Source: a virus. From it: a stretch of DNA of 64,000 nucleotides. Shown here one piece after another: positions 21,193 to 51,885 of this stretch. The stretch spans positions 1 to 64,000 of IMG/VR virus record IMGVR_UViG_3300031419_000010. One strand, given 5' to 3'. The notes beneath the pieces are model-generated. The model saw nothing but the letters and a program-made list of their open reading frames with translations, made no database searches and was not told the origin of the DNA. A program made the translations under genes and the position numbers. How positions within the stretch are numbered: the stretch's first letter is position 1; each line of letters begins with the position of its first letter.

Positions 21193-21978
21193 TTATTCGT
21201 CGTCTTCGTCTTCGTCTTCGTCGTCGAAGTCTTCGTCTTCTTCGTCCTCTTCGTCTTCATCTTCGTCACCAGCGAAGTGAGCTTCCAGCGCTTCGCGCAG
21301 TTCTTCTTCGTCTTTCTTTTTAGCTTGCGCTTTGGTAAAGACGCCTTCTTCGATTGCTAAGGCGCGAAGTTCGTCTTCGTCGAGATCTTCGAGGTCGGTA
21401 TCTTCGTCCTCGTCTTCATCTTCGTCTTCGTCGTCTTCTTCGTCCTCTTCATCTTCATCGTCGCCGTCTTCGTCGTCTTCGTCGTCTTCGGAATCATCTT
21501 CCTCGTCTTCGTCCTCGTCTTCGTCGTCGCCGTCTTCATCTTCCTCTTCTTCGTCGTCCTCGTCCTCTTCGTCTTCTTCTTCATCAGACGCGCCTAACGC
21601 TTCTTGCAGGAGTTCCAGCAGTTCCTCAAGGTCGAGGTTAGCCGCTTTCTTTTTGGTAGAGATTTTGGCTTTAACAACCGCTTCACGCAGAACTTCTTCG
21701 TCTACGCCGTCCAGATCAATCGACTCTTCTTCTTCGATTGCTTCCACGATAGCAGCGGCAGTTACTTTCGACTTCTTACCAGCTTTTGCTTTTGCTTTCG
21801 GCTCAGCTTTAGCAGCTTTACCTTTAGCGCCTTTCGCACCAGTTGCGACAGTCAGACCTGCGGCTTCCAGAATCGCAGCAACTTCAACATCAGCGCTTGC
21901 AGCTTCGGACAGCAGACCAGCCATTTTAGCCAGAGTTTCCATCGCGGTGTTTGAGGTTTTCTTAGCAGCTTTAGCCAT
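21193..21978 (-). CDS. acidic protein with two HeH (Rho-N/SAP-like) modules and poly-D/E tracts
   Basis: Start at MAKAAKK (AGGA RBS); LDGVDEEVLREAVV..LEELLELL and LEDLDEDELRALAIEEGV..EEELREAL; ~60-residue D/E run. Confidence 0.8.
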   Translation of the reverse strand: MAKAAKKTSNTAMETLAKMAGLLSEAASADVEVAAILEAAGLTVATGAKGAKGKAAKAEPKAKAKAGKKSKVTAAAIVEAIEEEESIDLDGVDEEVLREAVVKAKISTKKKAANLDLEELLELLQEALGASDEEEDEEDEDDEEEEDEDGDDEDEDEDEEDDSEDDEDDEDGDDEDEEDEEDDEDEDEDEDEDTDLEDLDEDELRALAIEEGVFTKAQAKKKDEEELREALEAHFAGDEDEDEEDEEDEDFDDEDEDEDDE

Positions 21979-22033
21979 TTTTAAAATTTCCTGTTGGACT
22001 TGTTCAGAGTAACGAACCGTATTGTTCAATTAC

Positions 22034-22161
22034 TATTTACAGAATTAAAAGAAGTTTTGTTTGTGCCGCCGAAATTAATCAGCGGCTGTGACAGTCACTG
22101 TTTACAGTTTCTGTCTGGCAGAAAGAATTTATCATTTCTGCCTTACACGAATACTTTACAG
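22034..22161 (-). promoter_or_regulatory. cluster of three CTGTAAA(T/C/G) motifs interleaved with hairpins (putative phage-sigma promoters)
   Basis: CTGTAAATA at 22034-22042, plus CTGTAAAC and CTGTAAAG; stems GGCAGAAA/TTTCTGCC and GCCGCTGA/TCGGCGGC. Confidence 0.45.
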
Positions 22162-22174
22162 ATTCGGGCTGGAA

Positions 22175-22756
22175 TTAAAAGTTTTCGTCAGAAGACTTTT
22201 TCTTTTTCTTACCAGCTTTATCTTTGCCAGCTTTGGCAGAGATTTTTTCAACGCCGCCCTTTTTCTTTTCGATAGCCAGTGGCATATCGTACTTACGAGC
22301 GGCAACGGCTTCATCAACCATAGCGCGAACATCGAAGCCCGGAATGTCAGTAGCGATGCGAGTAATTTCGCCCGTCTGAACATCGGTACAAATCAGGACG
22401 CCTTCTTTCGCTTTGATCGTTTGACCGCGCAGAATTGAAACAGGCATGTAAGCAGAAACCAGCAGTTGACCAGTATCACCAACTTCACCGATAAAGCTAA
22501 TGATTTGGTTTTTGGTGAAGGTACTAACAACCTGCTTAGAACTACCAGCGCCTTTCTTGTGACGCAGAGTTACGCTACCATCAGCGCCAGCGTCGATAAT
22601 AAAGCCTGAAACTTCGTGTGCGCCGTGCGCTGAAATTTCAATGTCGTGCGCCAGATCGGTTTGCTTTGATTTAACACGCGCAATCGCGCCTGCTTTCTTT
22701 GCGATACGGTCAATGCGCTTTGGAACTAATGAGGTGGACTTAGAAGGCTTAGCCAT
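22175..22756 (-). CDS. hypothetical beta-rich protein with Lys-rich ends
   Basis: 193 aa, GGAG RBS. Confidence 0.8.
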   Translation of the reverse strand: MAKPSKSTSLVPKRIDRIAKKAGAIARVKSKQTDLAHDIEISAHGAHEVSGFIIDAGADGSVTLRHKKGAGSSKQVVSTFTKNQIISFIGEVGDTGQLLVSAYMPVSILRGQTIKAKEGVLICTDVQTGEITRIATDIPGFDVRAMVDEAVAARKYDMPLAIEKKKGGVEKISAKAGKDKAGKKKKKSSDENF

Positions 22757-22779
22757 TTTATTTTGAACTCCGGTTCAAC

Positions 22780-23538
22780 TTACTTCAATTGGTCAAGGAT
22801 GAATTCGACAACCAGATTAACTGAATCGTCGAAATGCTTTTCGTGAGTCACCAGAGGAATCAGCTTGATAGAAAACGTATGGCAGACTTCGCTAAACTTC
22901 TTCCACGTAGATTCAGAGGCATTCATCGTAACGATAATGTCGTGAATCTTTGCAAACTCCCAATGATGCGCTAGTTCGTTTTGTACATACGAACGAATGT
23001 TTTCGCGAACCAACTGTTTTTCCTTTACAGTTAATTCGACAAATAAGTTAGGCCAGTGAGAAATAAAATCGGTACTGACATTTTCAAACCGCTTACCAGA
23101 GTTTGACTGACTGGTAATCAGCGACCGGGCTGCGAAATGCGCTACCACAGTATGCAGGCGAGACAGCGCCGCATTTAAAACAGTTTCCACTAGACGCTCA
23201 GCAGGCGTTTCGGGAACATCCTGAATAATCTTTTCAAGTTCCGCAATACGGCGCTCGAAAGTTTCAACGTCACTGGCGTGGGCGCTAATCAATTCCTGAA
23301 TACGTTTTTCATATCCAAGTTTTTGTTCTTCGCCTCGCACTAAGACATTATTATATTCAGTGGTAATATTCGCTAAATTTTCTTTTGCGATTTCCAGACT
23401 GACTTTGGCATTTGCCAGTTCAGTCAGATTACCGTTTAAAACTTTTGAAACCGCCCTTTCCTTGACTACAACATTATCAAGTTCTTGCCGGGTATTGAAC
23501 AAAGTGCGATTTAAAATTTCAGTCTGTGAATCGGACAT
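22780..23538 (-). CDS. hypothetical coiled-coil protein
   Basis: Start trimmed to MSDSQ (AAGGA RBS). Confidence 0.75.
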   Translation of the reverse strand: MSDSQTEILNRTLFNTRQELDNVVVKERAVSKVLNGNLTELANAKVSLEIAKENLANITTEYNNVLVRGEEQKLGYEKRIQELISAHASDVETFERRIAELEKIIQDVPETPAERLVETVLNAALSRLHTVVAHFAARSLITSQSNSGKRFENVSTDFISHWPNLFVELTVKEKQLVRENIRSYVQNELAHHWEFAKIHDIIVTMNASESTWKKFSEVCHTFSIKLIPLVTHEKHFDDSVNLVVEFILDQLK

Positions 23539-23551
23539 TAAGGTATCCTTA

Positions 23552-23592
23552 AAATGGTGCAGAGCAAATCGCCCCACACCATTTATTTACAG
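23552..23592 (-). promoter_or_regulatory. CTGTAAATA motif followed by a hairpin
   Basis: CTGTAAATA at 23584-23592; AAATGGTGTGGGGC-GATTT-GCTCTGCACCATTT. Confidence 0.45.
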
Positions 23593-23593
23593 A

Positions 23594-26557
23594 TTACTCT
23601 TCGCTTTCGTCTTCTTCGTCAGATTCATCGGAATCCAAATCACTGACGCCAGACAGAAGCAGAACCAGATCACCGCCGTTAGCAAACGCAGCCTCAGCCA
23701 CACCAGAACACAGCAGAGTCAGCGGCAGGTTTTCAGTGCCGATTGAATGTGCCGCTTCCAGAATGTCATCGCTTTCGTTGATACGTGCAATGTCGTTCGT
23801 GGAGTAGGAAGAAACTGAAATGTCATCGTTAGCCATATCAGCAATGGCCTTAACAACAGTGCGCAGAGTTTCGTTGCTTACCAGTGAACCGGAGTTCAGC
23901 GTAAAGCCAACATAAACTTTGGTATCAGTTTCGCCCAAGTGTGAAACCACACGGTTGTAAGCGCTGGCAATCAGTGCCACAACTTTCTTACGATCCAGAC
24001 TCCAGATGCAAGGCATTGCGATGTTCAGCACTGCGGTATTCAGAACAGTGCTTTCGGTATCAACAGTTACCGGACGAACGCTAACATGCGCGTTGTACAG
24101 TGAAGCCATTGGAATGTGATCGCCCTGCATTTCGTTCAGGTAATCAGGCGACAGATTTTCATCTTCATCACCGAAATCATTTTCATCGTCGATGAAATCG
24201 CCCAGCACCAGACCGCTTTCATACGGATCTTGTCCAGCTTCCAAACGGCCTTCGTACAGCAGCGAATCGATCTGGCTGCGAATGGTGTTTGAAAGTTTTT
24301 CAGCATAGCTTTCAACATCGAAAGTTTTGCGGTCAGACATAAACGGCAGCGCAGAGCTTCCCGCCAGCACATCGCTAACAACAGTCAGCGGAAGATACAT
24401 AGAACCTTCTGCATCTTCGGTCATGTTGATCGGTACGCGGTAGTCGATACCGTTCTGATCTTTCAGTTCGTCGGAAATAGCTTCGAACGTCTGGCGATCA
24501 GTCAGCGTAAAGTTAACCAGCAGCGTTTGCTCCTGACGAATGCGCAAGAACGTTCCGAGATTGCTGGTAGAGCTTTCAGCAATGAAAGCATCATCACCGT
24601 CTTCTTCATCAGCGCTTTCGCTACCGTAGTCTGCGTTGTCTTCGTCTTCGGATTCTTCGTCGTCGCCTTCTTCTTCATCAGAAGATTCTTCAACGTCAGA
24701 AGATTCAATTTCTTCTTCGTCGTCTTCGACGCCTTCCAGTTCTGAATCAAGTTCAGAATCGTCCTGCTCGAAATTGTTCAGACGAAATTCATCGAACGCT
24801 TTCAGCGCAGCAACGCGGCCCAGCCCTTCGGTTTCAACGCCGACAGAATCCAGCGCAGCAATACGCTGTTCGTGATCCAGTTGAGCGCCTTCGAACATAA
24901 ACAGTTCAGAGTAATCAACCGGGTTGACTTCGTACTCTGCCCACTCAGGATACACGTCAGCAACAACAGGCAGTGCGCCCCAAGTTTGAATCATGTTTTC
25001 AAACTCTTCTGCGGTAGTACCCATCGACAGCACACCGATAATGCGCTCAGCAATATTTTCGGCAGTGTCGTTTTTGTAGGTTTTCTGATTCAGCGATTCG
25101 CTACGTGCGATAGTGCGCAGAACCGGACGCAGATCTTCGTCGATTTCGATTTCGCCGTCGCGAGTCAGCAGTTCAAGGAATTCAGTAGGAGCATCAAACT
25201 CCGCTTCTTCCTCGTCTTCTTCCTCTTCGGATTCTTCGGCGTCTTCGTCGTCGCCTTCTTCCTCTTCTTCGGTTTCAGAATCGTCTTCGGATTCTTCTTC
25301 CTCTTCCTCTTCTTCCGGCGCGTCGTCTTCCACCGCATCACTTTCTGCGTGGATGTAATCAGCGAAACCGCTCACGCCGCCAAGACGCTCGTTAGCTGCC
25401 ATTACAAAACTCCAGTGTTCGCTGTAGTCCTGATCTTCGACCAGTTCCAGAATTTTGGTAGTCAGCGTTTCTTCGGTATCGCTACCGAAAACTTTGCCGC
25501 CCAGCATAAACACCAGCTTTTTCAGTTGAGCACGATCCAGTTTAGCGCCCAGCAAAATAACTGCGGTTGCTTCGGAAGCGTTAAACACTTCCGCTTCTTC
25601 GTCGTCGCCTTCTTCCAGATCCAGCGAATCGTTTTCTTCGTCGTCGCCTTCGTCAGAATCGTCAACAGAAACTGCTTCGCCTGCGCCGCTCAGGAAATCT
25701 TTACGTTCCTGTTCGTACGACACCGCGATTTCGTTATCAGGCATTGCGGTGAGGTCATAGCCGAGTGCTTCCAGCGCTGCCATTTTTTCGTCAACAGAAA
25801 CTGAGGTTTGGTTGTCGCGTTTGAAAACGTCGAGAGGATTTGTCACTTTGTCACCCTTAATGGATTTAATCAGAAAGTTCACACGATTTACTTCGGAGCG
25901 AACTACAAAACTTAAAGCAGCACCAGCCAGAATGATTGAATCAGGACGCGCATCAGTCCAGTTCAGAACAGGCGCATTCATTTGGTCAACCGTAGCTTTC
26001 AGCACCGGAACAAAATTCGTTTCGTTGCTTTCAAACTTTTCCAGTTGCGCAGCCAGAGACTCAACAACACGAGCGCTGTTTGCTTCGGAAGTTACCGCGA
26101 TAGCATGAACGCCGAAACGAGAAGCGTACGAGTCTAACGTAGTATTATCATTCGCAGCCAATTCTGCGACTTTTAAAAGCGATTCGCTCAGCATACCTGC
26201 GAGGCGCTTCGTACTCCCATTTACAGTATAACGGATGATTACCGATGCACTGTCTTTCAGTTTGCAGCGCTCATCAATGCCTGCGTTTGCGCCGCCAGTT
26301 GGCCCCAGCAGATTCAGAATCGGCTGATCCTTTCCCGCCATTGCCAACAGGTCAGTAATGCGGTTCATCGCTTTGCCTTGCGCCACGGTTTGAACAACGT
26401 TTCCGTTTGGCTCAGCGCGAAGAATCTGATTACCATTTACAGTAGGACAAAGAACTACAACAACCGTGCTCTTTTCAGTTGAGGAACCTTGCGCAATGTT
26501 TTGAGCATTAACAGTTGCAGCGTGTGGTGCGGTTCCAAAATTTTGAGTTGACGACAT
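23594..26557 (-). CDS. very large acidic protein with several HeH-like modules separated by D/E linkers
   Basis: Start MSSTQ (GGAG RBS); ~987 aa; three long acidic tracts. Confidence 0.8.
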   Translation of the reverse strand: MSSTQNFGTAPHAATVNAQNIAQGSSTEKSTVVVVLCPTVNGNQILRAEPNGNVVQTVAQGKAMNRITDLLAMAGKDQPILNLLGPTGGANAGIDERCKLKDSASVIIRYTVNGSTKRLAGMLSESLLKVAELAANDNTTLDSYASRFGVHAIAVTSEANSARVVESLAAQLEKFESNETNFVPVLKATVDQMNAPVLNWTDARPDSIILAGAALSFVVRSEVNRVNFLIKSIKGDKVTNPLDVFKRDNQTSVSVDEKMAALEALGYDLTAMPDNEIAVSYEQERKDFLSGAGEAVSVDDSDEGDDEENDSLDLEEGDDEEAEVFNASEATAVILLGAKLDRAQLKKLVFMLGGKVFGSDTEETLTTKILELVEDQDYSEHWSFVMAANERLGGVSGFADYIHAESDAVEDDAPEEEEEEEESEDDSETEEEEEGDDEDAEESEEEEDEEEAEFDAPTEFLELLTRDGEIEIDEDLRPVLRTIARSESLNQKTYKNDTAENIAERIIGVLSMGTTAEEFENMIQTWGALPVVADVYPEWAEYEVNPVDYSELFMFEGAQLDHEQRIAALDSVGVETEGLGRVAALKAFDEFRLNNFEQDDSELDSELEGVEDDEEEIESSDVEESSDEEEGDDEESEDEDNADYGSESADEEDGDDAFIAESSTSNLGTFLRIRQEQTLLVNFTLTDRQTFEAISDELKDQNGIDYRVPINMTEDAEGSMYLPLTVVSDVLAGSSALPFMSDRKTFDVESYAEKLSNTIRSQIDSLLYEGRLEAGQDPYESGLVLGDFIDDENDFGDEDENLSPDYLNEMQGDHIPMASLYNAHVSVRPVTVDTESTVLNTAVLNIAMPCIWSLDRKKVVALIASAYNRVVSHLGETDTKVYVGFTLNSGSLVSNETLRTVVKAIADMANDDISVSSYSTNDIARINESDDILEAAHSIGTENLPLTLLCSGVAEAAFANGGDLVLLLSGVSDLDSDESDEEDESEE

Positions 26558-26558
26558 A

Positions 26559-27824
26559 TTACTTTTTCTCCGTATCAATTTGCCAGCTACGACGTTTCAG
26601 ATTTACGCCGTAGTAGATGCGTTGTGTTGGACAGCCGGAAACGATTTCGGTTTTGAAACCCCAAGACGCGAGAGAGACTTGAAGTTTTTTCGGTTCGATA
26701 TTCACAAGAGAACGAATCTTGCGAGTAACGCCCATCGCGCCAATATCAAGCGGGAAGAAATTCGCAGATGCAACAGGGCCATCTTTCTTTAAAGCGCTAA
26801 CAACTTTGCGCTCAAGACGTGCGAGTTTTTTCCACTGTTCTTGACGTTGTTCGAAATAAGCATTTGCATCTTTTATTTTGAGCAAATCCTTGCGCGATAA
26901 ATCAGATTTGTATGCCAGAACTTCTACAGCATGTTTATGCGCAGCGTGTTCGTCTTTATCGTAAGTGCGGAACCTACGAGCGGCTACCATATCTTTCGAG
27001 CTATACTCATCAAACTGATCAACCAGAACTTCGTAATCGTCGGAATCTAAAAACTTCGCTTGATGAAAATTCTTTTCGTTTTCATCAGGCCAGTAAAGAA
27101 TCCCGAACACCAAAATGTACTGCCCACTTTTACGCAAAGAGAAACTGTTAAAGTGGCGCGGCGCAGCGGTAAACTCACTCCGCAAAACAGTTGGTGAAAT
27201 CGGAATAGGAAAATTCGTTTCCGAGAAAGCGTACCCATCCACCAAACTAAACTTAGCGTTGGCGTGATCCGTTAAGCTATAAAGCATAACAGCGGGAATA
27301 CCTTTCGGAGCGGTCATTGCCTTTTTAGTTTCCGGTTTCAGCTTTGCCATAAATTTCTTCATGGTCATCAACTGTTCCGTATACGCAGCGCAGTACATAT
27401 ATTCATTTTGCGCACCCATCGACAATTTATATTGAGCAATGTAATGCTTAATAATCTTGCCGATGTATTTTATCGCGTCTGCCTGATCGTCTGCACTGTC
27501 CAACTGCGTGATAAACTCCGCAAGCTGTTTGTGCTTTGGAACACCTAAGCCAAGTTCAAACAGCGTTGAAAGCTGTTCAAGTAAAACACCACGTTGGCCC
27601 CGGCGCAAATCGCGATACATACGCAATACAGTTTGAGGACGAATGCGAGGGAAGAAATAATTCTGCACCTGCTCACGCGCACCAAACTTTGTACGCACGT
27701 AACGCACAAGCGCTACGCTCTTTGAAGTTTCCATATACTTAGGGGAGACTTCAATGATTTTCCAGCCATTCAGTTTTAGCAGCTTTTGACGATCTTCAAA
27801 CGTCAGTAGTTGGCTTAAAAACAT
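26559..27824 (-). CDS. hypothetical protein
   Basis: 421 aa, AAGGA RBS. Confidence 0.8.
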   Translation of the reverse strand: MFLSQLLTFEDRQKLLKLNGWKIIEVSPKYMETSKSVALVRYVRTKFGAREQVQNYFFPRIRPQTVLRMYRDLRRGQRGVLLEQLSTLFELGLGVPKHKQLAEFITQLDSADDQADAIKYIGKIIKHYIAQYKLSMGAQNEYMYCAAYTEQLMTMKKFMAKLKPETKKAMTAPKGIPAVMLYSLTDHANAKFSLVDGYAFSETNFPIPISPTVLRSEFTAAPRHFNSFSLRKSGQYILVFGILYWPDENEKNFHQAKFLDSDDYEVLVDQFDEYSSKDMVAARRFRTYDKDEHAAHKHAVEVLAYKSDLSRKDLLKIKDANAYFEQRQEQWKKLARLERKVVSALKKDGPVASANFFPLDIGAMGVTRKIRSLVNIEPKKLQVSLASWGFKTEIVSGCPTQRIYYGVNLKRRSWQIDTEKK

Positions 27825-28284: not shown

Positions 28285-28660
28285 GATCTTTGCCTTGCAT
28301 GGAGTAGCTACTCCAAATTTCTTTCACAAGTTGCGGCCACTCATCTTTCGACAATTCAGAGCCGTAAATCTTGCGATAGGCAGACCAGAAGCCTGCACCC
28401 GGTTCCTTGCCGCCATCTTTGCGCGACAGGTAAAGCGCCGCTAAAGGTGGACGACCCGCTTTTGCATCAGTGCGCATCGTTTCCAGCAAAATATCCCAAA
28501 TCAGATCCGATTGTTCTTTTTGCAAACGACAAAACTGCATACCGAAAACGGTAGGAGAAAGATCGTTGTAGAACACGAAAACATTTTGTGTTGCAGCAAG
28601 AATCAATCGACTATAGACCTGACCGAAAACAGCGCGAACAATTACGTCTGATTTTTCCAT
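28274..28660 (-). CDS. hypothetical protein
   Basis: 128-aa ORF, TGATG coupling. Confidence 0.7.
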   Translation of the reverse strand: MEKSDVIVRAVFGQVYSRLILAATQNVFVFYNDLSPTVFGMQFCRLQKEQSDLIWDILLETMRTDAKAGRPPLAALYLSRKDGGKEPGAGFWSAYRKIYGSELSKDEWPQLVKEIWSSYSMQGKDHES

Positions 28661-29655
28661 CAGAACTCACCTTTAGCTGGTTTGGGTTTTTTCATCACTT
28701 CCGGATCTGCCAGCTTAACCAGAAAATCCATCGAGTTGCTGAAATACTTTTTCACCACAGTAGGAAGTAACTGTTCCGGAACAGTTGGAGCCAGCGCTTT
28801 AACAACTGCTTCGGTTTGCTGCTTGTTCAGTTTCATTTCACCAGTTTTGATGAAATTTTTCAGAACGCGAGGCAATGATTGTTCAGCGCGAACTTCGTTG
28901 ATGTGATCCGACAGAGCGCGTAACGCTTTCTGAGTTTTGTTCGGGCCAAACTTCTCAACAATCTCACGCGCAGAGATTGGAAGCATTTTGGATTCAATGC
29001 CAAGCGAAGCAGAAACAACGGTTTCAAATTCTTTCCACTGCTTGCGGTTGCTTCGTGCGTGGTGCATTACCATGCGCAGAGTTTCCTGCACGTCCAGACC
29101 AGCAGAATCGCGAGACACGGACGCACGTTTATCAGTTTTCTTTGGTGCAGGCTTCGCAGTGCGTTTTAGCGTGGTTGCCTTTTTGATAGACGGCTTGCGT
29201 TTGGTTTCAGCAAACGTTGATTCACCTGTTTGCGGCGCATCAGATTTTGGCTGCGCAGTTTTCAGTTTCTTAACTGCGACTTTGGTCAGCTTTGGCTTAA
29301 CCTCTTTAACTTTTGCCGAGACAGGTTTCGGTGCCGCTTTTGGATCTACACGCTGCCAGTTTTCGAATACTGGAATATCCGGCATTTCACCTTTCTTGAT
29401 AACGCGCATTTGATCGCGGTTGTAGATGTGAAGATAGCCGTCGATGATTTGATCGCCGCCTTTTGGAATCGCCTTAACTTTTTCTTCTTCGACGACTTGA
29501 AGGCGACGACCAACGCGCACCAGTTGCGACATTGGCGTTTGAGATTTTTCGCCAGCCAGACGATAGCCGTTTTTGCCGTAGCTTTCGATGTGAGTCAGTT
29601 TACCCGCCAGAGTACGAACAACAACGCCAACCAGATTTTTATTTGCAGTAGCCAT
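28660..29655 (-). CDS. basic protein; N-domain paralogous to 29725..31278
   Basis: LVGVVVRTLAGKLTHIESYGKNGYRLA; Lys/Pro-rich linker. Confidence 0.8.
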   Translation of the reverse strand: MATANKNLVGVVVRTLAGKLTHIESYGKNGYRLAGEKSQTPMSQLVRVGRRLQVVEEEKVKAIPKGGDQIIDGYLHIYNRDQMRVIKKGEMPDIPVFENWQRVDPKAAPKPVSAKVKEVKPKLTKVAVKKLKTAQPKSDAPQTGESTFAETKRKPSIKKATTLKRTAKPAPKKTDKRASVSRDSAGLDVQETLRMVMHHARSNRKQWKEFETVVSASLGIESKMLPISAREIVEKFGPNKTQKALRALSDHINEVRAEQSLPRVLKNFIKTGEMKLNKQQTEAVVKALAPTVPEQLLPTVVKKYFSNSMDFLVKLADPEVMKKPKPAKGEF

Positions 29656-29687: not shown

Positions 29688-29712
29688 AAAGCGCGGCAAT
29701 TATTTACCGCGC
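29688..29712 (-). terminator. hairpin terminator
   Basis: GCGCGGTAA-ATAA-TTGCCGCGC-TTT. Confidence 0.6.
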
Positions 29713-29724: not shown

Positions 29725-31278
29725 TTATTTCAGCAGAGAGCGCAGTTTTTTCTCGCTCATTTTTTCTGCTTTTTTCAGCGACGCCAGATTTTTACGAACT
29801 ACAACATCGCGAAGTTCGTCTTCGTCCATATCGTCGTAGTCTTCGTCATCGCCATCGAAATCTTCTTCGCCTTCTTCGTCTGATTCAGAAACGACAGGCG
29901 AGTATTCGCTCAGGCTTGCAATGTCGCTGTGATCGAATGCAACAACTTCTTTGCCACCTTCTTCAATAACCAGCAGATCAGAATCTTCGTCCAGACCGAT
30001 AAAGATCATTGTGTCGTCGCCGTCTGTCAGTTTCAGACCGGGAACCAGAGCGGATTTTTCAACGCCCCAAGTGTCGCACAGCATTTCGATATGCTCAGCG
30101 GTCACATCTTTATCAAGATCGCGCAGTTGAGCTTTGGACAGGGAAGCGTATTCGTATTCAGTTTCGGAATCGTCGTCGGAATCGTCGTCAGAGTCAGTTT
30201 CGGAATCGTCTTCCTCTTCTTCCTCTTCTTCCTCTTCTTCCTCTTCTTCCTCTTCTTCCTCTTCTTCCTCTTCTTCCTCTTCTTCCTCTTCTTCCTCTTC
30301 TTCCTCTTCGTCTGCTACGATTTCGTAGTGAGAGAGGCCAGCGGCTGAAACGTTGCGGAATTTTTCGCTTTCCAGATTGTACAGAACAGCTTTGTCTTTA
30401 TCTTCGACGTTCGGGCCACAGTAAACAAATTGACCGTCTTCACCTTCACGCACCAGCAGAGTTCCGGCAGTGAACATTTCAGGCTCAATGCTCAGATGTT
30501 CGCGAATCGCAGACGCCAGCTTTTTGCCAACGGTTTTGCCGACACGCGATTTGATTTTGCCAGCCAGTTCAGGACTGATTTCAAAACCGCCACTGACTTC
30601 TTCCGGCTCAGGCTGAACCAGCGCATATTTCAGATTCAGCGTTACGCGAATGTCGCCGCCTTCACGATCAAACTGAGTTGAGAAACCAACTTCGAACGCG
30701 TTATCAATTTTCGCGCCGTTCGGATCGAACTTCGCAATGTCTGAATCTTGCAGCGCTTTAACCAGACGTTCGGTTACAGCAGTTGAAAGAGTTTCGTCAA
30801 CTTCGCTCAGCAGAACAGAAGGAACTTGTTTGCCGCGACGTTTAACACCTTTCGATTCGGTATCTGCGTCAACGTCATCAGCTTTTTTACGGCGCACTTT
30901 AGAAACAGGCGCAGTGTCTTCGACCGCTTTGCGAGATTTACGAACGCCAGTTGATTTTTCAGCGGCTGGAGCTTTAGCAGCTTTTTTGCCAGCAGACTTA
31001 GAAGGCTTTTCTACGAATGCGTCAGTGCCAACTTTTTTCTGCATCGCTTTGTCGGCAAATTCAACGTAACCTTCGCCAGTGTCGTTCAGATCGCGCAGAG
31101 ACACGTTAGGAATTTCGTAATACACCGCGCCTTTTTTCGCAAGCTGTTTGCTGTTAACGCGAACAGTGCGATCAGCAACTTTATAGCCAGTTGCCATTGC
31201 GTCAGTGATTTTAGTTTTGGTGCCGTCCAGCAGAACAACAGATTTACCGATCAGTTTAGTTGAGGTTGCGATTGCCAT
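29725..31278 (-). CDS. multidomain protein with poly-Glu tract and C-terminal HeH module
   Basis: 517 aa; E33 run; C-terminal YDDMDEDELRDVVVRKNL..MSEKKLRSLL. Confidence 0.85.
   Translation of the reverse strand: MAIATSTKLIGKSVVLLDGTKTKITDAMATGYKVADRTVRVNSKQLAKKGAVYYEIPNVSLRDLNDTGEGYVEFADKAMQKKVGTDAFVEKPSKSAGKKAAKAPAAEKSTGVRKSRKAVEDTAPVSKVRRKKADDVDADTESKGVKRRGKQVPSVLLSEVDETLSTAVTERLVKALQDSDIAKFDPNGAKIDNAFEVGFSTQFDREGGDIRVTLNLKYALVQPEPEEVSGGFEISPELAGKIKSRVGKTVGKKLASAIREHLSIEPEMFTAGTLLVREGEDGQFVYCGPNVEDKDKAVLYNLESEKFRNVSAAGLSHYEIVADEEEEEEEEEEEEEEEEEEEEEEEEEEEEEEEEEDDSETDSDDDSDDDSETEYEYASLSKAQLRDLDKDVTAEHIEMLCDTWGVEKSALVPGLKLTDGDDTMIFIGLDEDSDLLVIEEGGKEVVAFDHSDIASLSEYSPVVSESDEEGEEDFDGDDEDYDDMDEDELRDVVVRKNLASLKKAEKMSEKKLRSLLK
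30211..30309. repeat. perfect 9-bp tandem repeat (TTCCTCTTC)x11 encoding 33 Glu
   Basis: Counted directly. Confidence 0.95.
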
Positions 31279-32522: not shown

Positions 32523-33163
32523 TTGAAACCACCTGTATCACGCATATGGTTAACAACAGCAGCGCGGAGTTGTGAAAGATTAAGAGAAGTTGGCGACAAT
32601 TTCGGAATATTGATCATCACATATTCTTCCAGTTCTTCCAACGCCCACGCATGAGGATTGTTTGCGTAAGCCAACGTAACATGCTCAATGCAAAGCAGGA
32701 TCATTTTATCACGATCCACTGTGCTATCAGGAGCAACAAGTTTATTCGCCAAACAATAAGCATCCAGTTTGCTTGTGCTCCACGTCGCAGGATTACGTTC
32801 ATCAAATGGCGCTGTTGTTCCGGTTTCGGCCAGGCGAACAATTTCTTCGTCGGACAGATTCAGGTCATCCAGAACACGGCTCAAACTTAAACGAGGCCAA
32901 TTTTTGGTTGCTTTGGTTTGCAGAAATGCAAAGCTAGAATGATCGGGCTGAAATACAATATAACCACGCTGGCGCATTTCGTGCATAAATTCCAGCAGCG
33001 CATTGGGAGCAATAAATCCATCAGCGTAACCGAACGCCTCAGAAACATTTTTAACACTAATGAGGTGGCGAGATAAAGAATCTCTGCCTTTGGCTTCTTT
33101 AGCGTAACGTTCAAGATTCATAACGATGAGAGAAGCAACGGCAGCAGCAGAACGAATTTTCAT
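32519..33163 (-). CDS. hypothetical protein with two C-terminal HeH-like repeats
   Basis: NPATWSTSKLDAY.. and NPHAWALEELEEY..; start trimmed to MKIRS (GGAG RBS). Confidence 0.75.
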   Translation of the reverse strand: MKIRSAAAVASLIVMNLERYAKEAKGRDSLSRHLISVKNVSEAFGYADGFIAPNALLEFMHEMRQRGYIVFQPDHSSFAFLQTKATKNWPRLSLSRVLDDLNLSDEEIVRLAETGTTAPFDERNPATWSTSKLDAYCLANKLVAPDSTVDRDKMILLCIEHVTLAYANNPHAWALEELEEYVMINIPKLSPTSLNLSQLRAAVVNHMRDTGGFK

Positions 33164-34566: not shown

Positions 34567-35368
34567 ACTCGTCGTCTTCCTCTTCTTCCTCTTCCTCTTC
34601 GCGGTTAAAAGGAAGGTTGACTGTCTCTTCGATTGCGTCACCGTCAAATTCTTCGGTGAAGGTTTCTGCTTCACTTTCGAAATCAAAATCAGGCTCGTCA
34701 TCATCGAACGACAAAGATTCATCAACGCGCTTTTTATTTTCCATGTAGAAAATCGCGTCACTTGCCATGTTGGTTAACGTGGCATCGTTTTTCATATCAA
34801 GTTCAGCTTCGATAAAGCGCTGTTCCCACGTACGGCGCGGAACTTCCATAATCTGATCCGCATGGTCTTCTACTTCTTCGCCGCCCTGAATAGGCAGGCC
34901 AAGAAACTTAACCAGCGCACGGACGGAACTAAGTTCCACGTCGCAGATCATTTCATACAGCGATTGCTTTTCGATTTCGTCGCGCTGCTCAAGCAGGAAG
35001 TTTTCCAGCTTCGTGCTGTCCTGAATTTCAACTTTAGTTACTGCGCGGTTGTCCGGTTTGACTACGCAACGCAGAGCGATGAGCGGAACTTCTGCAAAGG
35101 ATTTGCCGATGTTCATCAAAATACACATATCAACAAAGCGCTCAGATTCGTGAACGGCATCACCTTGCACAACACAGCGCATCACAGCACGATCAAAAAT
35201 CTCTTCGCCATTAGAGCAAGTGATTTTGATTGGCAGTGCATCGCCATACATTTTCGCAACGGCCTGAGAAAGCAAAAGCCCCGGCACATGCGCAGCAAGA
35301 AGTTTGCCGTCGCGCAGGAAAGAAAACGTGATACCACCAAAGCCAGTTTTACGTTGTACGGTTAACAT
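34565..35368 (-). CDS. hypothetical protein with HeH-like module and acidic C-tail
   Basis: VELSSVRALVKFLGL..; poly-E end. Confidence 0.75.
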   Translation of the reverse strand: MLTVQRKTGFGGITFSFLRDGKLLAAHVPGLLLSQAVAKMYGDALPIKITCSNGEEIFDRAVMRCVVQGDAVHESERFVDMCILMNIGKSFAEVPLIALRCVVKPDNRAVTKVEIQDSTKLENFLLEQRDEIEKQSLYEMICDVELSSVRALVKFLGLPIQGGEEVEDHADQIMEVPRRTWEQRFIEAELDMKNDATLTNMASDAIFYMENKKRVDESLSFDDDEPDFDFESEAETFTEEFDGDAIEETVNLPFNREEEEEEEEDDE

Positions 35369-35380: not shown

Positions 35381-36226
35381 TTATTTAGACTGATTGATTA
35401 GGAATTCAAGCAAAGCTGCATCGGCATTGTTTCGAGCTTTCAAAGTTATGCCCATGTTTTCTGCCGCATCGACAACCGTTGGAAAATCCAGATACTCCAA
35501 GATCTCGTTTACGGCGTTTTGAACAGGGGCATCAACTTCACCAATGTTCAGAGTTTCAGCAAGTTCTTTAAGCGTGTCTATCGGCAACGAAAGCAGCAAG
35601 AATTTTAATTGCTGATATGTGCCAGAGGCTTCACGTCTTTCTTCCGGTGAAAGTTTTTCCGCTTTTACGCGGCGGCGCTTGTTGTCTAACAACGTTGCAG
35701 GCGCACGTTCTACAGCTTCATGCTGAACTTCTTCTTCCACTTGCTTTTTACTTTCTGTAGGTTTAACCACTTCCTTTTTATTCTTCGGTGGCGTTTCTTT
35801 TGCCTTCACAGGTTTTGCTACAATCGGTGCAGGCTTTTCTGTTTCACCAAAAGACTCGTCTCCGAGTTCAATCAAATTTCCCTTATACCCTTTTTCAGAA
35901 AAAGTAATTCCTACGATACTTGTTGCGCTATGAGGCAACTCAATCAAAGTAAAATCTGGAGCGTCGTGTTTTACCAGCGCCCAATCGCCGTGTATTGCGC
36001 GAAAGTTAAAATCGGCAAGAACGTTCTCAACTAACTTTGGCAGTTTGCGACGTGAAGTGTTTTCAATACTGCGGTGAAGATCAACAACAGAGATACGAAT
36101 AAAGTTGTCGTTAAACAACTCACCCTTTTCGTAAAGTCTACGGCGAGTCACTTCGTTTTCTTCGAAGATGCTTACCAGTGCTGAACGTACCGCTTCAAAA
36201 TCACTCTGACTATTTTCAGCAGACAT
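35381..36226 (-). CDS. hypothetical protein with C-terminal HeH-like modules; paralog of 33248..33895
   Basis: HGDWALVKHDAPDFTLIELP; LPIDTLKELAETLNI. Confidence 0.75.
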   Translation of the reverse strand: MSAENSQSDFEAVRSALVSIFEENEVTRRRLYEKGELFNDNFIRISVVDLHRSIENTSRRKLPKLVENVLADFNFRAIHGDWALVKHDAPDFTLIELPHSATSIVGITFSEKGYKGNLIELGDESFGETEKPAPIVAKPVKAKETPPKNKKEVVKPTESKKQVEEEVQHEAVERAPATLLDNKRRRVKAEKLSPEERREASGTYQQLKFLLLSLPIDTLKELAETLNIGEVDAPVQNAVNEILEYLDFPTVVDAAENMGITLKARNNADAALLEFLINQSK

Positions 36227-45304: not shown

Positions 45305-45309
45305 GAGCG

Positions 45310-46274: not shown

Positions 46275-46290
46275 CAAATTTTCACCCTTT

Positions 46291-46318: not shown

Positions 46319-46324
46319 GCTTTG

Positions 46325-48334
46325 TTATTTGTTTGCCATGCGCTCCATAGCGTTCATGAACATTTCAGCCAGACGCGGCGCACCGAGTTTCTTCAAACTG
46401 AGATCGCTGTATCCACGCGCTGCCAGTTCCTGAATCAGTTCCTGACGATTCAAAGCAGGAATCACATCACGAAAGTTTTCTTTCGTAACTTTCCCTTTAG
46501 CGGCAGGCGCAGGTTCAGGTTCAGGCTCAGATTCGTTTTCACGCTTAATTGCCATCAGTTCTGAATAGCTCATAGTCTGCGCACGGCTATAGCTAACCCA
46601 CTTGTTTGATACCACAAGTTCGATCAGGCTGGCATGTTCCGTAGAGATAGTAACTTCATCGCTGTCATCTTCGTCACTTTCAACTACAGTAGTCTGTTCA
46701 GATTCTGGAACAAATTCAGATGCAGCAGAATCAGGATCGATTAACGGTAGAGTATACTGTTCAGCCGTGGCATTGATCTTATCAGCGTACTCATAGAACT
46801 TATAAGGCTCGTCTGCATCTTCCACGATACATTCGATTTCTTCAAGAAGCTCACTGATAGAATACGTGTGAAGGTTATCAATAGAGACTAACGATCCAAG
46901 CAAGGTGCGCAGAACAGAACGACGGAAAGCAGAACCTTTGTGAAGATTTTTCTCCTGCCACTCAATGAATTTAGTGCGCAGCGTATCAGCAGGATCAACA
47001 TAATCATGGAAATCAATATCGGTCAGCTCGAAAAGTTTTTGCACAATTTCGTAGTGGCGAAGTTTTTTGATCTCGTCCATAGACACGATCTCACCGATGC
47101 CTTTCTGCAAAGTATAAAGCGCGTTGCCTAGTACCACGGTAGGCTGAAACTCAAGCTCCTTGAATACGTCAATACCGGCTCCGTCTTTAATGCGGCGCAT
47201 AATTTTTTCTTCAATCTCAGCAACAGAAAAAATAGGGTGTTCGCCTTCTTCCTGTTCGTCCTCGTCTTCCTCTTCTTCTTCGGAATCGGATTCTTCATCG
47301 TCGTCTTCTTCCACAGAATCATCGTCCGATTCATCATCCCAATCGTCGTCTTCGTCGTCTTCCTTTTCGTCGTCTTCCTCTTCGTCGTCTTCCTCTTCCC
47401 CTTCAATCTGGAGATAGACGTGAGTTGCAAACTCATCAAACGCGACAGACTGATTAGAATTGTTGATCGCATTAACGTCAATCATTTCTTGAGGGTCGCC
47501 TTTGTGTGCAGAAATACATGCAGCAACAAAACAATCGAAAAATTCTTCGAAGTCGGTATCGTTAAAATCTACCCAACGATTAAACGATTCTGCGGTGATA
47601 AAGTATTTATCGCGCAGACGTTTCAGAATTTCCTGCGGCCCAAGCAAAGCAAGGTTAGTTGCTAGTGTCGGAATGCGGGTAACTGTTTCCAGACCAATAA
47701 TGACAGCAAAGCGTTGAACCGTTTCAAAAGGGAAAACACTGCACAGGTGCCGGAATACGTCTTTCCCGATCTCACTGTTATCATCAACAATGGTTTCAGG
47801 ACTAATGCGAGAGCGCAGAGAAATCCAGTTAGAAGATTCGCCTGCCGCATCGAATGCGTAGCGCTGCGTAAAGAATTCATTCAGGCCAGCACATACCGGA
47901 AACACGCGGTAGAAGTTTCTCAGGTCAGCAAACAGATGCGCCAAAAATGCGCGACGATCTTTGCGGTCAAATGGAATATGACACAAAGCGGCCAGGCGAG
48001 AAAGTTCGTTGTTGTTCTCCACGCTCAGAAGATCGTTAACATCAAAACGGCGAGTCAGTTGCAGCGTGTCAGTCACAACGCTTTCAATTGTCATCACGTT
48101 AAGATTTGCAAACTCTTCTGGCAACTCATCGCCATTGAAAACCATACCGAGGAAACCAGAACACTCAGACGGGTTAAGATGCTTCTGCATAAACGCCAGC
48201 AGGGTTTGTTCCGGCGTCTGGTCAGCAACAACGTTTTGCTGATAGCTAAGAAGATTGTCAAAAGCCGCTGCAATCTCTTTCAGTGCGGTAGCGCGACGTG
48301 CAGGATCTTTAGGCAGATTGATATAATCAAACAT
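46325..48334 (-). CDS. large acidic protein with multiple HeH-like modules
   Basis: ENNNELSRLAALCHI, EHASLIELVVSNKW..MSYSEL, LNRQELIQELAARG; long D/E tract. Confidence 0.8.
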   Translation of the reverse strand: MFDYINLPKDPARRATALKEIAAAFDNLLSYQQNVVADQTPEQTLLAFMQKHLNPSECSGFLGMVFNGDELPEEFANLNVMTIESVVTDTLQLTRRFDVNDLLSVENNNELSRLAALCHIPFDRKDRRAFLAHLFADLRNFYRVFPVCAGLNEFFTQRYAFDAAGESSNWISLRSRISPETIVDDNSEIGKDVFRHLCSVFPFETVQRFAVIIGLETVTRIPTLATNLALLGPQEILKRLRDKYFITAESFNRWVDFNDTDFEEFFDCFVAACISAHKGDPQEMIDVNAINNSNQSVAFDEFATHVYLQIEGEEEDDEEEDDEKEDDEDDDWDDESDDDSVEEDDDEESDSEEEEEDEDEQEEGEHPIFSVAEIEEKIMRRIKDGAGIDVFKELEFQPTVVLGNALYTLQKGIGEIVSMDEIKKLRHYEIVQKLFELTDIDFHDYVDPADTLRTKFIEWQEKNLHKGSAFRRSVLRTLLGSLVSIDNLHTYSISELLEEIECIVEDADEPYKFYEYADKINATAEQYTLPLIDPDSAASEFVPESEQTTVVESDEDDSDEVTISTEHASLIELVVSNKWVSYSRAQTMSYSELMAIKRENESEPEPEPAPAAKGKVTKENFRDVIPALNRQELIQELAARGYSDLSLKKLGAPRLAEMFMNAMERMANK

Positions 48335-48941
48335 TGGCTTCTTCCTCTTCAACGATGTTTGCGCCCATCAGAAACTCGATGATCGCGCCGTGTTCTGTTT
48401 TTACGTCGCTGTGTTCATCAGCGCCAGCAAGATAAGTTTGATACTCTTCAAGGAAATTCATTTCCTGAATTTTCGCCAGCAGATGCTCACGATTCATATC
48501 CTCTTCTGCCGGAAACTCATCGTTGATTACATACAGGCTGTGTAGCTGATCAAACGTCAGTGCATCCAGCACGAAATCTTTGTGAACCTTCGGATCGATT
48601 TTTGGATCGTACGTGCGAGAAAGCAGACGTTCCTGAACCAGTGATTCGCAATCGCCAAAGTTAAACCACAGTTCAGACTTGTGCGGCTGAATGTTGTTTG
48701 GCTCCAGAAAGTTTTTGTTGAAGAAGTTGCGAAGCGTGTCGATGTGCTTGCCGCTATCAGCCAGACGGTTAGACAGCAGATAAACAACACGCGTACGATC
48801 AGAACAATCGACGTTTGTGATTTCCATCGCTTCTAAAACATCGGTAAGCTGCTTGTCGTTGAACAGCGCCAGTGCATACCACCATTCGCCTTCTTCCAAC
48901 AAACGCGCAATAACCAGATCGCCATTAATTTGCTTGCTCAT
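48327..48941 (-). CDS. acidic protein with HeH-like modules
   Basis: FNDKQLTDVLEAMEI; LTFDQLHSLY..MNREHLLAKI. Confidence 0.75.
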   Translation of the reverse strand: MSKQINGDLVIARLLEEGEWWYALALFNDKQLTDVLEAMEITNVDCSDRTRVVYLLSNRLADSGKHIDTLRNFFNKNFLEPNNIQPHKSELWFNFGDCESLVQERLLSRTYDPKIDPKVHKDFVLDALTFDQLHSLYVINDEFPAEEDMNREHLLAKIQEMNFLEEYQTYLAGADEHSDVKTEHGAIIEFLMGANIVEEEEANV

Positions 48942-48951
48942 CTTTTTACCC

Positions 48952-49770
48952 TTAAACAAAATCGTCTTTTAAGTCGGCACGAAAACCAGCAGCCAGTTCC
49001 GGCGTGATCTTTTCGTACGTGTAAGTTAATGCTTCGAACACCGCAAGAGTTTCGTCTTTCGGTTTCCAGTTCGACCAATCAACCCATTCAGCATTCGCTT
49101 TGTATGTTTCAATGCCTTCATAGATCATATCGGTAACGCTTTCTGCAAGCAGCGAATCTTCGTAGTCTTCATCAAAAATGTCTATGCCGATAGAAGCCAT
49201 CAAATCATCGCGCTGTGATTCTTTAAGCGCGTTGTTCAGGAAGTCCAAAATCTTTTGTTCCTGACGATGATAAACAACATAGTCCATCATCATTTTGAAA
49301 AGCTCAAGGCGCGTTTTATCTTCAAACACGCGAGGATCTTCTTCGGGCATCAGCGCGATAAGTTGCGGAACACTTAGCTTTGAAAGTTCCTCCGCACTAT
49401 CCTGCATGTTTTCTTTATCGACCAGAACATCAGCCGCACGACACGCCGCCACCAACTCAGTTGGATGCTGTGTCATCAGATACGCCTGAATGCGTTCGTC
49501 CATAATAAAGTCAGCAGGACGCGCAAACATCGGATGCTGCGTTGCCATACGAATCAGAGCGCCAACCATGATATGAATTTCATCACTCACTTTTGACAGT
49601 TCAAAAATCCGCTGCGAATAGTGCTCCAGTTCTTTTGGGTGCTGGCTCAGTTCTGCTTTTTCCAGCAACTGATAAAACTCAGGAGTGAACTTGTGTGAAC
49701 CTGAACGAGCAGCAGCATAGATAAAGCGCGTACCCGAAATTAATTCTGACAGACTTGCATGAGTTTTCAT
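48952..49770 (-). CDS. acidic helical protein with HeH-like modules
   Basis: QHPTELVAACRAADV; LKESQRDDLMASIGI. Confidence 0.75.
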   Translation of the reverse strand: MKTHASLSELISGTRFIYAAARSGSHKFTPEFYQLLEKAELSQHPKELEHYSQRIFELSKVSDEIHIMVGALIRMATQHPMFARPADFIMDERIQAYLMTQHPTELVAACRAADVLVDKENMQDSAEELSKLSVPQLIALMPEEDPRVFEDKTRLELFKMMMDYVVYHRQEQKILDFLNNALKESQRDDLMASIGIDIFDEDYEDSLLAESVTDMIYEGIETYKANAEWVDWSNWKPKDETLAVFEALTYTYEKITPELAAGFRADLKDDFV

Positions 49771-49879
49771 AGACGCCTCAGTTTTTAGGTATCAGCTTAT
49801 CACACTGCTTGTTCAAGCGGCGCAAATGCCAACGGTTGATATAGGAACGAACAAAACGGGAAAACTTTTTAAAGGACAC

Positions 49880-50833
49880 TTACCGCCTCCGAAGAAGATC
49901 CGCTACTGCGAGGTTTTTAGCTTTTGATTCGCACATAATGTCGAAGTCCTCAAAAGACAACGCCCACGCATTAACTAATGGGTTATGAAAATAATCCGAG
50001 TGAGCACGTAGTTTTGTTTTCGGAAAAGGAATCTTGTTCTGATCCGGAAACTCGTCAGACGGAACATACTCAGGACGTGAAACAGAATAGTGCATTGTTG
50101 GGCGAACACCGCGCCAGCTTTCAATAACACGCTTAACGCGTTTATCGTTTGGCTTGATGTATTCGTTTGTCATTACCCAATGATGATGAATATCAAGAAC
50201 GACAGGAAGCAGATCGCTAAGCGTTAAACATTCTTCGACGCTGCTTGTCAGTTCGTCATTTTCAACAGTCAACATTCTGCGGCATTCAGGCGACAGCAAT
50301 TTAAAGTTGCGTCTAAATTCGCTGGCTCCAAGTTTGCCGCTCAGGTGAATGTTGATTTTGAAGTCTTGAAACTTTTTGCCGTAACCCATCAACGTTGCAA
50401 TCTCTGTGTGATACTCAAGATCACGCAAAGAGTTTTCTACAACGTGAGGCTTGTCACTCGCAAGCACGGTAAACTGACCGGGATGAAACGAAAGCCTAAC
50501 GCGATGCAAACGCGCAAGCTCACCGAGATCTTCCAGCAGCGTAACCATATTAGGCAACACATACTTGCGACTGATCTCTCTGAAACTTTCATGCGTGAAT
50601 AACGGTAGGAGTTCGCTTGTTATGCGCATCATGCGTTTCTGTTCCGGACGGATAGCCAACATTTTTGTCATAGCAATAACACTACGAATGTTTGACTGTC
50701 CAATCTCAACCAGCTTTGCAATTTGTTCACGCTTAGGCAAAAGAGATAAACGCGCAGCAGTAACAGTGCGCGAAGGGAAAGGCTGCTTGCCGTCAGCACT
50801 CATATATTTACAAGCGAATCCTACACGTTGCAT
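49880..50833 (-). CDS. uvsE: UV damage endonuclease UvsE
   Basis: GFACK, RITSELLP, SFHPGQF, VENDE, LDIHHH, HYS, HSD, ESKAKN. Confidence 0.93.
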   Translation of the reverse strand: MQRVGFACKYMSADGKQPFPSRTVTAARLSLLPKREQIAKLVEIGQSNIRSVIAMTKMLAIRPEQKRMMRITSELLPLFTHESFREISRKYVLPNMVTLLEDLGELARLHRVRLSFHPGQFTVLASDKPHVVENSLRDLEYHTEIATLMGYGKKFQDFKINIHLSGKLGASEFRRNFKLLSPECRRMLTVENDELTSSVEECLTLSDLLPVVLDIHHHWVMTNEYIKPNDKRVKRVIESWRGVRPTMHYSVSRPEYVPSDEFPDQNKIPFPKTKLRAHSDYFHNPLVNAWALSFEDFDIMCESKAKNLAVADLLRRR

Positions 50834-50842
50834 TAATAGTCC

Positions 50843-51028
50843 TCAGAAAGAATCGTATTTCGGATCGGGCATTGTGTGGCTATCAGGAATGCCATTTTTA
50901 AGAGACTCTGGTATCTCTTTACAGATATTGGATTTTGAATCGCGCAGTGCTTTTGGCAGTTCGTGCGAATCGTGTACGCGGTTGCGCATCTTATCCGGAA
51001 TGCGTTTACCTATATCAGAATTTTTCAT
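50843..51028 (-). CDS. 61-aa protein made of two tandem repeats
   Basis: SDIGKRIPDKMRNRVHDSHELP and SNICKEIPESLKNGIPDSHTMP. Confidence 0.65.
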   Translation of the reverse strand: MKNSDIGKRIPDKMRNRVHDSHELPKALRDSKSNICKEIPESLKNGIPDSHTMPDPKYDSF

Positions 51029-51885
51029 TACTCAAATTCCTCTTTCGCTTTCAGATCCGCAATGCGCTGTTTCAGTTCTTTGCGCAGCTTAGGTAAAGCA
51101 AGATGCAAATTCACACCAGACTTGCGACCAAAAGAGACAACTTTTTTGCTTACGCGTGTCACTGACATGCCGAGACTGTTGCACCAATCAATTAATGGAT
51201 CGATACCCATCAGATCGATTTCGCTGTCAGTTGGATATTCAATATCGTCCTGATCTTCGTCTTCCGGTTCGTCGTCCGTGTTCTGCAAAATCTTTTGCTG
51301 TTCCTTTGCAGTCTCCAGCGATTTGATAAGCGTTTGGCGATCAACTTTACGCGCCATTGCTTCGTGAGGCATAAGGCCGTATGTCACAACAGCCGTATGC
51401 AGTTCGCTGTCTGTCTTTGCGTTCGGCCAGAAGTCATCAGGAATGTCCGGATAAGTTTCAGGTTCGTAGACAGGTTCCAGCGAAGCCCAAACCATCGAAC
51501 TACATGAGCGTTGATGAATGAATGTTGCTTCGCCCCAACCAACATCGATCAAGTTCTGGCGCAGTTCTTCAAACAGCGAAGGCGGCGCAACGCAATCAAT
51601 CGGACAAACTTCGACGTGAATCAAACCCGGTTTCAGTTTGAATTTTTCAACAGCGTAATCGTCGTTGAGAAACTTAACGTAATCGGCAACGTCTTTCGGA
51701 TATTCTTTGTGACGCCCGTAAAAAGGAGAAGGAGTTTCACCGCCAGCGATTTCAAGCAAGCAAGTATTGATGCGCTTGCCTGCTTCTGCCAGAAACTTTT
51801 CTTGCAGTTCGCGCTGTTCGTACCCAATATCACGAAATTGTTTTGGTGACATAACTTTGCTGCTTCTGGTTATTGAATTGTGCAT
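51028..51885 (-). CDS. hypothetical protein with two C-terminal HeH-like modules
   Basis: KTDSELHTAVVTYGL..VDRQTLIKSL; MGIDPLIDWCNSLGM; start trimmed below the small Zn-finger gene. Confidence 0.75.
   Translation of the reverse strand: MHNSITRSSKVMSPKQFRDIGYEQRELQEKFLAEAGKRINTCLLEIAGGETPSPFYGRHKEYPKDVADYVKFLNDDYAVEKFKLKPGLIHVEVCPIDCVAPPSLFEELRQNLIDVGWGEATFIHQRSCSSMVWASLEPVYEPETYPDIPDDFWPNAKTDSELHTAVVTYGLMPHEAMARKVDRQTLIKSLETAKEQQKILQNTDDEPEDEDQDDIEYPTDSEIDLMGIDPLIDWCNSLGMSVTRVSKKVVSFGRKSGVNLHLALPKLRKELKQRIADLKAKEEFE

Follow-up and report, generated by a model that had tools for sequence, protein, structure and literature searches.

A group of ten open reading frames (ORFs) on the minus strand of a viral contig, IMG/VR record IMGVR_UViG_3300031419_000010, raises the question of whether otherwise unrelated and often strongly acidic phage proteins can share one small folded module, and what such a module might be for. 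The window analyzed here is the first 64 kb of this 110,870-bp contig. All genes between 20 and 64 kb lie on the minus strand, and ORFs are designated below by their lower coordinate. An original prediction, made from the letters of the window, held that a helix-extension-helix (HeH) segment of the kind found in SAP, Rho_N and LEM domains recurs in about ten ORFs between positions 21,193 and 51,885, that many of the copies are flanked by tracts of aspartate and glutamate (D/E), and that the proteins build a shell-less replication compartment or act as nucleic-acid mimics. The ten ORFs are all present on the minus strand where they had been placed, and the peptides listed for them are found in their translations. 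We found that the listed segments are not one dispersed family. The proteins carry short helical “beads” that are folded and of several unrelated kinds, and most of the listed segments are ordinary helices. One kind, which we call family A, is a previously uncatalogued module that is named neither by Pfam nor by PHROGs.

The twelve listed segments were compared by several routes. A hidden Markov model (HMM) built from all 12 segments found nothing in the proteome beyond its own training set, since the next matches (up to 4.4 bits) were at the level of reversed and shuffled controls, and leave-one-out HMMs recovered none of the 12 held-out segments. A Pfam scan of the whole ORFs and of the 12 isolated segments returned no SAP, Rho_N, HeH or LEM match; apart from noise below the thresholds, it gave just the Ish1 signal in 32519 described below. 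The models for Rho_N (PF07498), SAP (PF02037) and HeH (PF12949) were also searched against the whole contig in six frames and gave no match at E ≤ 10; LEM (PF03020) was covered solely by the library scans of ORFs and segments, in which it had no match. Lastly, a profile-profile scan with hhalign was performed on 571 sliding windows taken from 38 ORFs, each paired with its ortholog in the Dickeya phage JA11. Beyond the known modules, the sole match was to residues 572-606 of 46325 (75%, E 2.6e-5), and the next unrelated window reached 5%. Collectively, the HMM and sliding-scan results indicate that the recurrence is real for four modules in three ORFs, and not for about ten ORFs as had been proposed.

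Family A is about 42 residues long, with the consensus DLDxLDEDELRxxVVxxxLxTxKKAKKMDEDELRELL, and 30 copies from relatives align without a gap. Its HMM finds three copies in the window at E-values of 1e-16 to 1e-21, everything else being noise. Two of these are in 21193 (21193-22029), a polyacidic protein of phrog_30618, where module 1 spans residues 102-149 (21583-21726; HMM i-E 1e-21) and module 2 spans residues 209-256 (21262-21405). The third is the C-terminal module of 29725 (29725-31278), an acidic protein of phrog_33433, at residues 477-517 (29728-29850; HMM i-E 3e-16); the two PHROG families cross-match at the module itself (E 2.5e-6). A fourth and divergent copy is probable in the 675-residue protein 46325 (46325-48352), at residues 572-606 (46535-46639), for which hhalign against family A gave 76-92% (E 8e-7 to 2e-5) and, in the comparison with eight homologs, 89% (E 2e-6). 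Judging from this conservation in sequence, family A is clearly a genuine conserved unit under selection.

AlphaFold2, run on the 21193 alignment, predicted two confident modules (predicted local distance difference test, pLDDT, 82-91) joined by disordered linkers. Each predicted module consists of a 10-residue helix, a 13-residue linker that holds a short helix, and a 12-residue helix (residues 111-120 and 134-145 in module 1; 218-227 and 241-252 in module 2). Of the five solved structures that match the predicted model, four represent either a SAP domain or the N-terminal domain of Rho (VIA matches 1zrj, 2do1, 1a62 and 7bu5), and Foldseek against the PDB returned nothing at E ≤ 0.001 either for this model or for that of 23594, described below. 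A link to the HeH clan may run through intermediates: four of 35 remote family-A members have weak Pfam matches, two to SAP (best E 3.6e-4), one to SAP_new25 (5.5e-4) and one to Ish1 (3.3e-3). On the predicted model we accept an HeH fold for family A, but not its membership of any named Pfam family; the SAP/Rho-N character proposed for all segments thus holds at the level of the fold for the three best examples, without significance for any Pfam family.

Like SAP (PF02037) and the HeH subdomain of the Rho N terminus (PF07498), family A has about 40 residues arranged as helix, extended linker and helix, shows the hydrophobic pattern L..L...EL...h....L........L..LL, and carries basic residues in the linker, its inter-helix loop being Lys-rich (T-x-K-K-A-K-K-M); in structure, the model is matched best by SAP domains and by residues 1-46 of Rho. 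Unlike these domains, its helices are strongly acidic, with a net charge of about -9 in one copy, its linker is longer (~13 residues) and includes a short extra helix, and tandem copies of the module are set in poly-D/E linkers, with no Pfam model being significant. These differences make nucleic-acid binding by family A doubtful.

A family-A profile search of 1.84 billion protein representatives retrieved 41 clusters only. Most of them are acidic proteins with one to four modules, often with D/E linkers in between, and all ten of the clusters looked up are metagenomic singletons. The proposal that modules are separated by acidic spacers was therefore borne out, as this architecture is kept both in relatives and across some 40 metagenomic clusters; among orthologs of 21193 and 23594, the modules are conserved and the lengths of the D/E linkers vary freely. 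Four family-A proteins contain a DUF669 domain, and two of these match PHROG families, P0053 matching phrog_378, “single strand DNA binding protein”. In some relatives the family-A module stands directly behind this DUF669/phrog_378 domain, which is like that of a single-stranded DNA-binding protein (SSB), and so occupies the position of the SSB interaction tail. An acidic tail on an ssDNA-binding (OB or DUF669) domain is present in the metagenomic proteins P0027 and P0053, and in none of the window proteins as judged by Pfam and PHROG. Nearer to the window, Alexandra-like homologs of ORF 20037-20375 are about 250 residues long and have a family-A module at their end (L008:12230-12970, L006:12101-12862); the window ORF (112 residues) has no such module, which was thus gained or lost between genera. 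We also noted that P0001, the closest relative of 21193, has three family-A modules instead of two, because module 2 and its linker have been duplicated in tandem. Scans of IMG/VR with the single proteins 29725 and 46325 found no relatives, and tblastn of a 41-residue module against phages gave no match, with the low-complexity filter as the probable cause.

A second kind of bead is found in 23594 (23594-26578), a 994-residue “beads-on-a-string” acidic protein. The alignment of its 11 orthologs consists of short conserved blocks between hypervariable acidic linkers, and AlphaFold2 predicts alpha/beta domains at both termini around short helical modules and disordered D/E linkers. Modules I (residues 256-300; 25679-25813) and III (residues 563-607; 24758-24892), here called family B, are paralogs that align gap-free (hhalign 92%, E 6e-7). 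Both are modeled as two helices around a 9-residue loop (residues 262-271 and 281-299, pLDDT 80-86, in module I; within residues 569-606 in module III). As far as can be read from its alignment, family B, too, is clearly a conserved unit under selection. As relatives of family A, modules I and III were rejected (hhalign probability 2.3%). Their pattern of secondary structure is HeH-like but no fold match was obtained, and a PDB sequence search with the family-B profile gave no HeH or other meaningful match. Between them lies module II (residues 330-420; 25319-25591), modeled as a five- to six-helix bundle. The LDRAQLKKLVFMLGG segment, which had been put forward as a free HeH, sits inside this predicted bundle of ~90 residues. 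Set against the death-fold domains (PYD, DED, DD, CARD), module II has no sequence similarity to them, and the bundle was modeled within 23594, not alone. Much shorter structural homologs of 23594, of 356 and 420 residues, are found in PaBG and in one other phage.

Another segment, in 32519, gave the sole HeH-clan Pfam signal on the contig, a suggestive match to Ish1 (PF10281) of 18.8 bits (E 3.3e-4 per genome), under the 26.6-bit cut-off. Like Ish1, 32519 has one or two Trp-initiated repeats, namely an Ish1-like repeat at 32699-32785 (Pfam Ish1 E 0.0013 on the segment), which is an insertion relative to the JA11 ortholog, and a second W-initiated repeat at residues 187-223 (32540-32650; hhalign between the two repeats 56%, E 1e-4). 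It differs from Ish1 in that its score is below the gathering threshold, it has no acidic tract, and one repeat is missing from the JA11 ortholog. As candidate relatives of family A, the two repeats proved unrelated by profile.

In hhalign comparisons, the segments claimed in 34565, 35381, 46325 (residues 622-675), 48327 and 48952 matched neither family A nor family B, nor one another. Those in 34565 (34805-34957), 48327 (48426-48578) and 48952 (49333-49485) were unsupported both by leave-one-out HMM and by hhalign. The segment in 35381 (35453-35605) belongs to a conserved C-terminus without a link to any HeH family in hhalign, and the C-terminal motif of 46325 (46328-46489) is highly conserved and SAP-like by eye; it was rejected as a family-A member at an hhalign probability of 0.8%. 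The C-termini of 35381 and 46325, being strongly conserved, may be small domains of their own, and ESM Atlas look-ups with the 46325 C-terminus and with 35381 returned chance-level or low-confidence rows only. The segment claimed in 51028 (51283-51435) lies in register with family A, but the alignment of residues 178-224 is not significant (hhalign 5.6%, E 0.007), and that half of the protein is absent from the JA11 ortholog.

The acidic tracts are real, reaching up to ~75 residues, although 32519, 35381, 48327 and 48952 are without a long one. Of the 162 ORFs called on the contig, 11 contain poly-D/E tracts, and some of these lie beyond the interval of the original prediction. In 21193, D/E make up 44% of the residues, with tracts at residues 146-220 and 252-278; 29725 has a tract at residues 319-366 with a long poly-E run, 46325 one at residues 315-372 (58 residues), and 23594 four, and the tracts of 34565 and 51028 are short. 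The recurring pattern fared less well, as its strict form is matched once only (in 29725) and the enrichment of a relaxed form is modest. With up to two of the 11 constrained positions relaxed, it occurs at 20 sites in the proteome of the 110-kb contig, as against eight in the reversed proteome (~2.5-fold enrichment) and three to six in shuffles. Half of the 20 sites fall in the named ORFs, and others in unrelated ORFs, for example a topoisomerase. Because the pattern derives from these very sequences, the enrichment is weak evidence.

Under another reading, the proteins have no common function: slippage in GAA/GAT-rich runs would have produced the D/E tracts, and the “modules” other than family A would be ordinary amphipathic helix-loop-helix stretches picked by eye. 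Such an explanation would fit the failure of leave-one-out and profile tests for eight of the 12 segments, the highly variable linker lengths between close relatives, and the presence of the relaxed pattern in ORFs as unrelated as a topoisomerase. However, families A and B are clearly conserved and under selection, the arrangement of module plus acidic linker recurs in unrelated metagenomic proteins, and the relaxed pattern is ~2.5-fold above the reversed proteome. On balance, we consider the absence of any common function rather unlikely.

Judged by its sequence, the window is a fragment of the genome of a Salmondvirus-like “hairy” jumbo phage, whose hosts are plant pathogens: its nucleotide identity to JA11, JA13, JA29 and JA33 (Salmondvirus), jumbo phages of Dickeya solani, is ~76%, and its more distant kin are Erwinia phage Y3, Alexandra-like phages and Dickeya phage AD1. 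These relatives have been described as “hairy Myoviridae” with large, elaborate virions (PMC6143709), and the clade belongs to the PaBG/Lu11 group and is not known as nucleus-forming (PMC7412058). The acidic proteins are largely disordered and lineage-specific to this non-nucleus-forming clade of Salmondvirus, Alexandravirus and Sasquatchvirus, and none of them is described in any paper that we found. The region adjoins topoisomerase II genes and includes homologs of dUTPase, transglycosylase, phosphohydrolase and UvdE endonuclease, its other genes being annotated as hypothetical in every relative. The UvdE UV-damage endonuclease homolog lies at 49880-50833, among the named ORFs (Pfam E 1.3e-48). 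Read along the minus strand, the gene order 29725, 28660, 23594, 21193, H1-like and 20037 beside topoisomerase II is kept across the clade, and this block of “hypothetical” genes is conserved in 57 records of jumbo phages whose hosts are Erwinia, Dickeya and Yersinia. Downstream of both the H1-like gene (20435-20408) and 29725 (29691-29712) there is a strong intrinsic terminator. Fewer sigma-70-like promoters are present (6) than in shuffled sequence (11.7 ± 3.7), which suggests phage-specific promoters.

Might the acidic proteins be virion-internal or assembly (scaffold/core) components, whose acidic parts would be either packaged or removed in the manner of T4-type prohead cores? Scaffold proteins are typically acidic and helical. 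The virions of the “hairy Myoviridae” are large and elaborate (PMC6143709), and shorter structural homologs of 23594 exist in PaBG and one other phage. Nevertheless, the genes are placed among DNA-metabolism genes and not in a recognizable head or tail module, all orthologs are annotated as hypothetical, and other phages have family-A modules joined to SSB-like domains. A structural role is, in our view, very unlikely.

The gene for 21193 lies immediately upstream of that for an H1-like Lys/Ala-repeat protein (20461-21021). Members of the H1-like family share a conserved N-terminal coiled coil of 55 residues, repeats of the form (A/E)KPAKA(D/E)KKAKA and an acidic DFxF tip at the C-terminus, in which F181 and F183 are invariant. 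Besides its two family-A modules and long D/E linkers, 21193 has an N-terminal helix (its true start is probably M18), a Lys/Ala patch, KGKAAKAEPKAK, and a conserved EDFDDEDEDEDDE tail. The peptide KGKAAKAEPKAK is common to both proteins, and both end in conserved acidic-aromatic tips. Lys-rich tails are found on many contig proteins, such as the first 58 residues of the topoisomerase II subunit at 16145-17842 (minus strand), and Lys-rich tracts also occur in 22175, 35381, 28660 and the radical-SAM protein 52287. Outside the window, a 412-residue protein at 79925-81163 (minus strand), which matches no Pfam family, alternates poly-D/E tracts with Lys/Ser tracts. As a separate observation, the first ~80 residues of 29725 match the JA11 ortholog of its basic neighbor 28660 (28660-29655) at 29% identity (E 5e-4), which agrees with a paralogous N-terminal domain common to one acidic and one basic protein.

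Our preferred, and still tentative, reading is that the acidic proteins may be polyanionic docking hubs or chaperones for basic nucleic-acid-binding proteins. The modules would serve as small docking units spaced along extended polyanionic linkers, and the proteins would bind their basic partners as electrostatic hubs, as chaperones or as competitors of DNA. The first candidate partner is the H1-like protein, presumably co-transcribed with 21193; Lys-tailed DNA enzymes such as topoisomerase II are further candidates. The mode of action might be akin to that of acidic histone chaperones, or of the acidic tails at the C-termini of phage SSBs, rather than direct DNA binding. Hints in its favor are the place of the module behind an SSB-like domain in some relatives, the neighboring H1-like gene, whose product has the KGKAAKAEPKAK peptide and an acidic-aromatic tip in common with 21193, the gene order kept beside topoisomerase II, and the many Lys-rich tails. 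Several results weigh against this interpretation. The SAP, Rho_N and HeH models of Pfam have no match on the contig even at E ≤ 10, a PDB sequence search with the family-A profile retrieved no HeH protein or other meaningful match, and the window proteins have no SSB or DNA-metabolism domain recognizable by Pfam or PHROG. Moreover, the acidic tracts and the Lys tails could each reflect the composition of this proteome, independently of one another.

The same negative charge could also serve in mimicry, as the original prediction had suggested. In that case, the polyanionic tracts would be DNA-mimic decoys that sequester host nucleoid proteins or DNA-targeting defenses in the manner of Ocr or Arn, with the modules giving specificity. 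The extreme charge (44% D/E in 21193), the non-structural gene region with topoisomerase, dUTPase and UvdE endonuclease, and sigma-70-type promoters that are not above chance, so that the genes appear phage-controlled, would all be consistent with decoys. Known DNA mimics are, however, folded proteins with ordered charge arrays, in contrast to the disordered poly-D/E of these proteins; no similarity to known mimics was found in Pfam or PHROGs, and no anti-defense context was identified. We regard mimicry as unlikely.

A more ambitious proposal, likewise part of the original prediction, is that phase separation brings together the acidic module proteins, the H1-like polycation and the Lys-tagged enzymes in a replication compartment without a shell, or in phage “chromatin”. 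The multivalent alternation of modules and spacers is conserved, partners of opposite charge have adjacent genes, Lys-rich or D/E-rich tails are present on many proteins, and the clade, in the PaBG/Lu11 group, is not known as nucleus-forming (PMC7412058). Yet this evidence is purely compositional, charge-rich tails are common in phage proteins without condensates, and, as only three ORFs share a module, the ten or so proteins of the supposed system do not make up a defined set. We think that a condensate of this kind is quite improbable. Its general form, in which jumbo phages that do not form a nucleus would encode a self-contained polyelectrolyte system of HeH-bead polyanions, an H1-like polycation and Lys-tailed enzymes that creates a charge-driven nucleoprotein compartment or chromatin around replicating DNA, strikes us as hardly probable.

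Family A provides a handle on the conserved block of “hypothetical” genes beside topoisomerase II. Only a small number of phage and metagenomic proteins contain the module, which lies nearly always among poly-D/E linkers and sometimes behind an SSB-like domain. If the acidic proteins do have the H1-like protein or Lys-tailed enzymes as partners, this would reveal how DNA metabolism is organized in large phages that lack a protein nucleus; if there is no such pairing, the result still corrects an over-broad reading of the segments.

Two groups of known proteins invite comparison with the proposed hubs. Several SSBs, including those of E. coli and phage T7 (gp2.5), have acidic C-terminal tails. 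The tips of 21193 and of the H1-like protein resemble them in being a disordered acidic tail with aromatics near the tip (EDFDDE..., DFEFELD). Unlike the SSBs, the window proteins have no detectable OB fold, their tails are tens of residues longer, and folded modules lie inside these tails. The second group comprises eukaryotic acidic chromatin proteins and chaperones: prothymosin-alpha pairs with histone H1, and DEK and SAF-A combine SAP domains with acidic regions. Here there is no homology, and the proteins described belong to a bacterial virus. The likeness lies in the arrangement, with a polyanion encoded beside an H1-like polycation, and a SAP-like module combined with acidic tracts.

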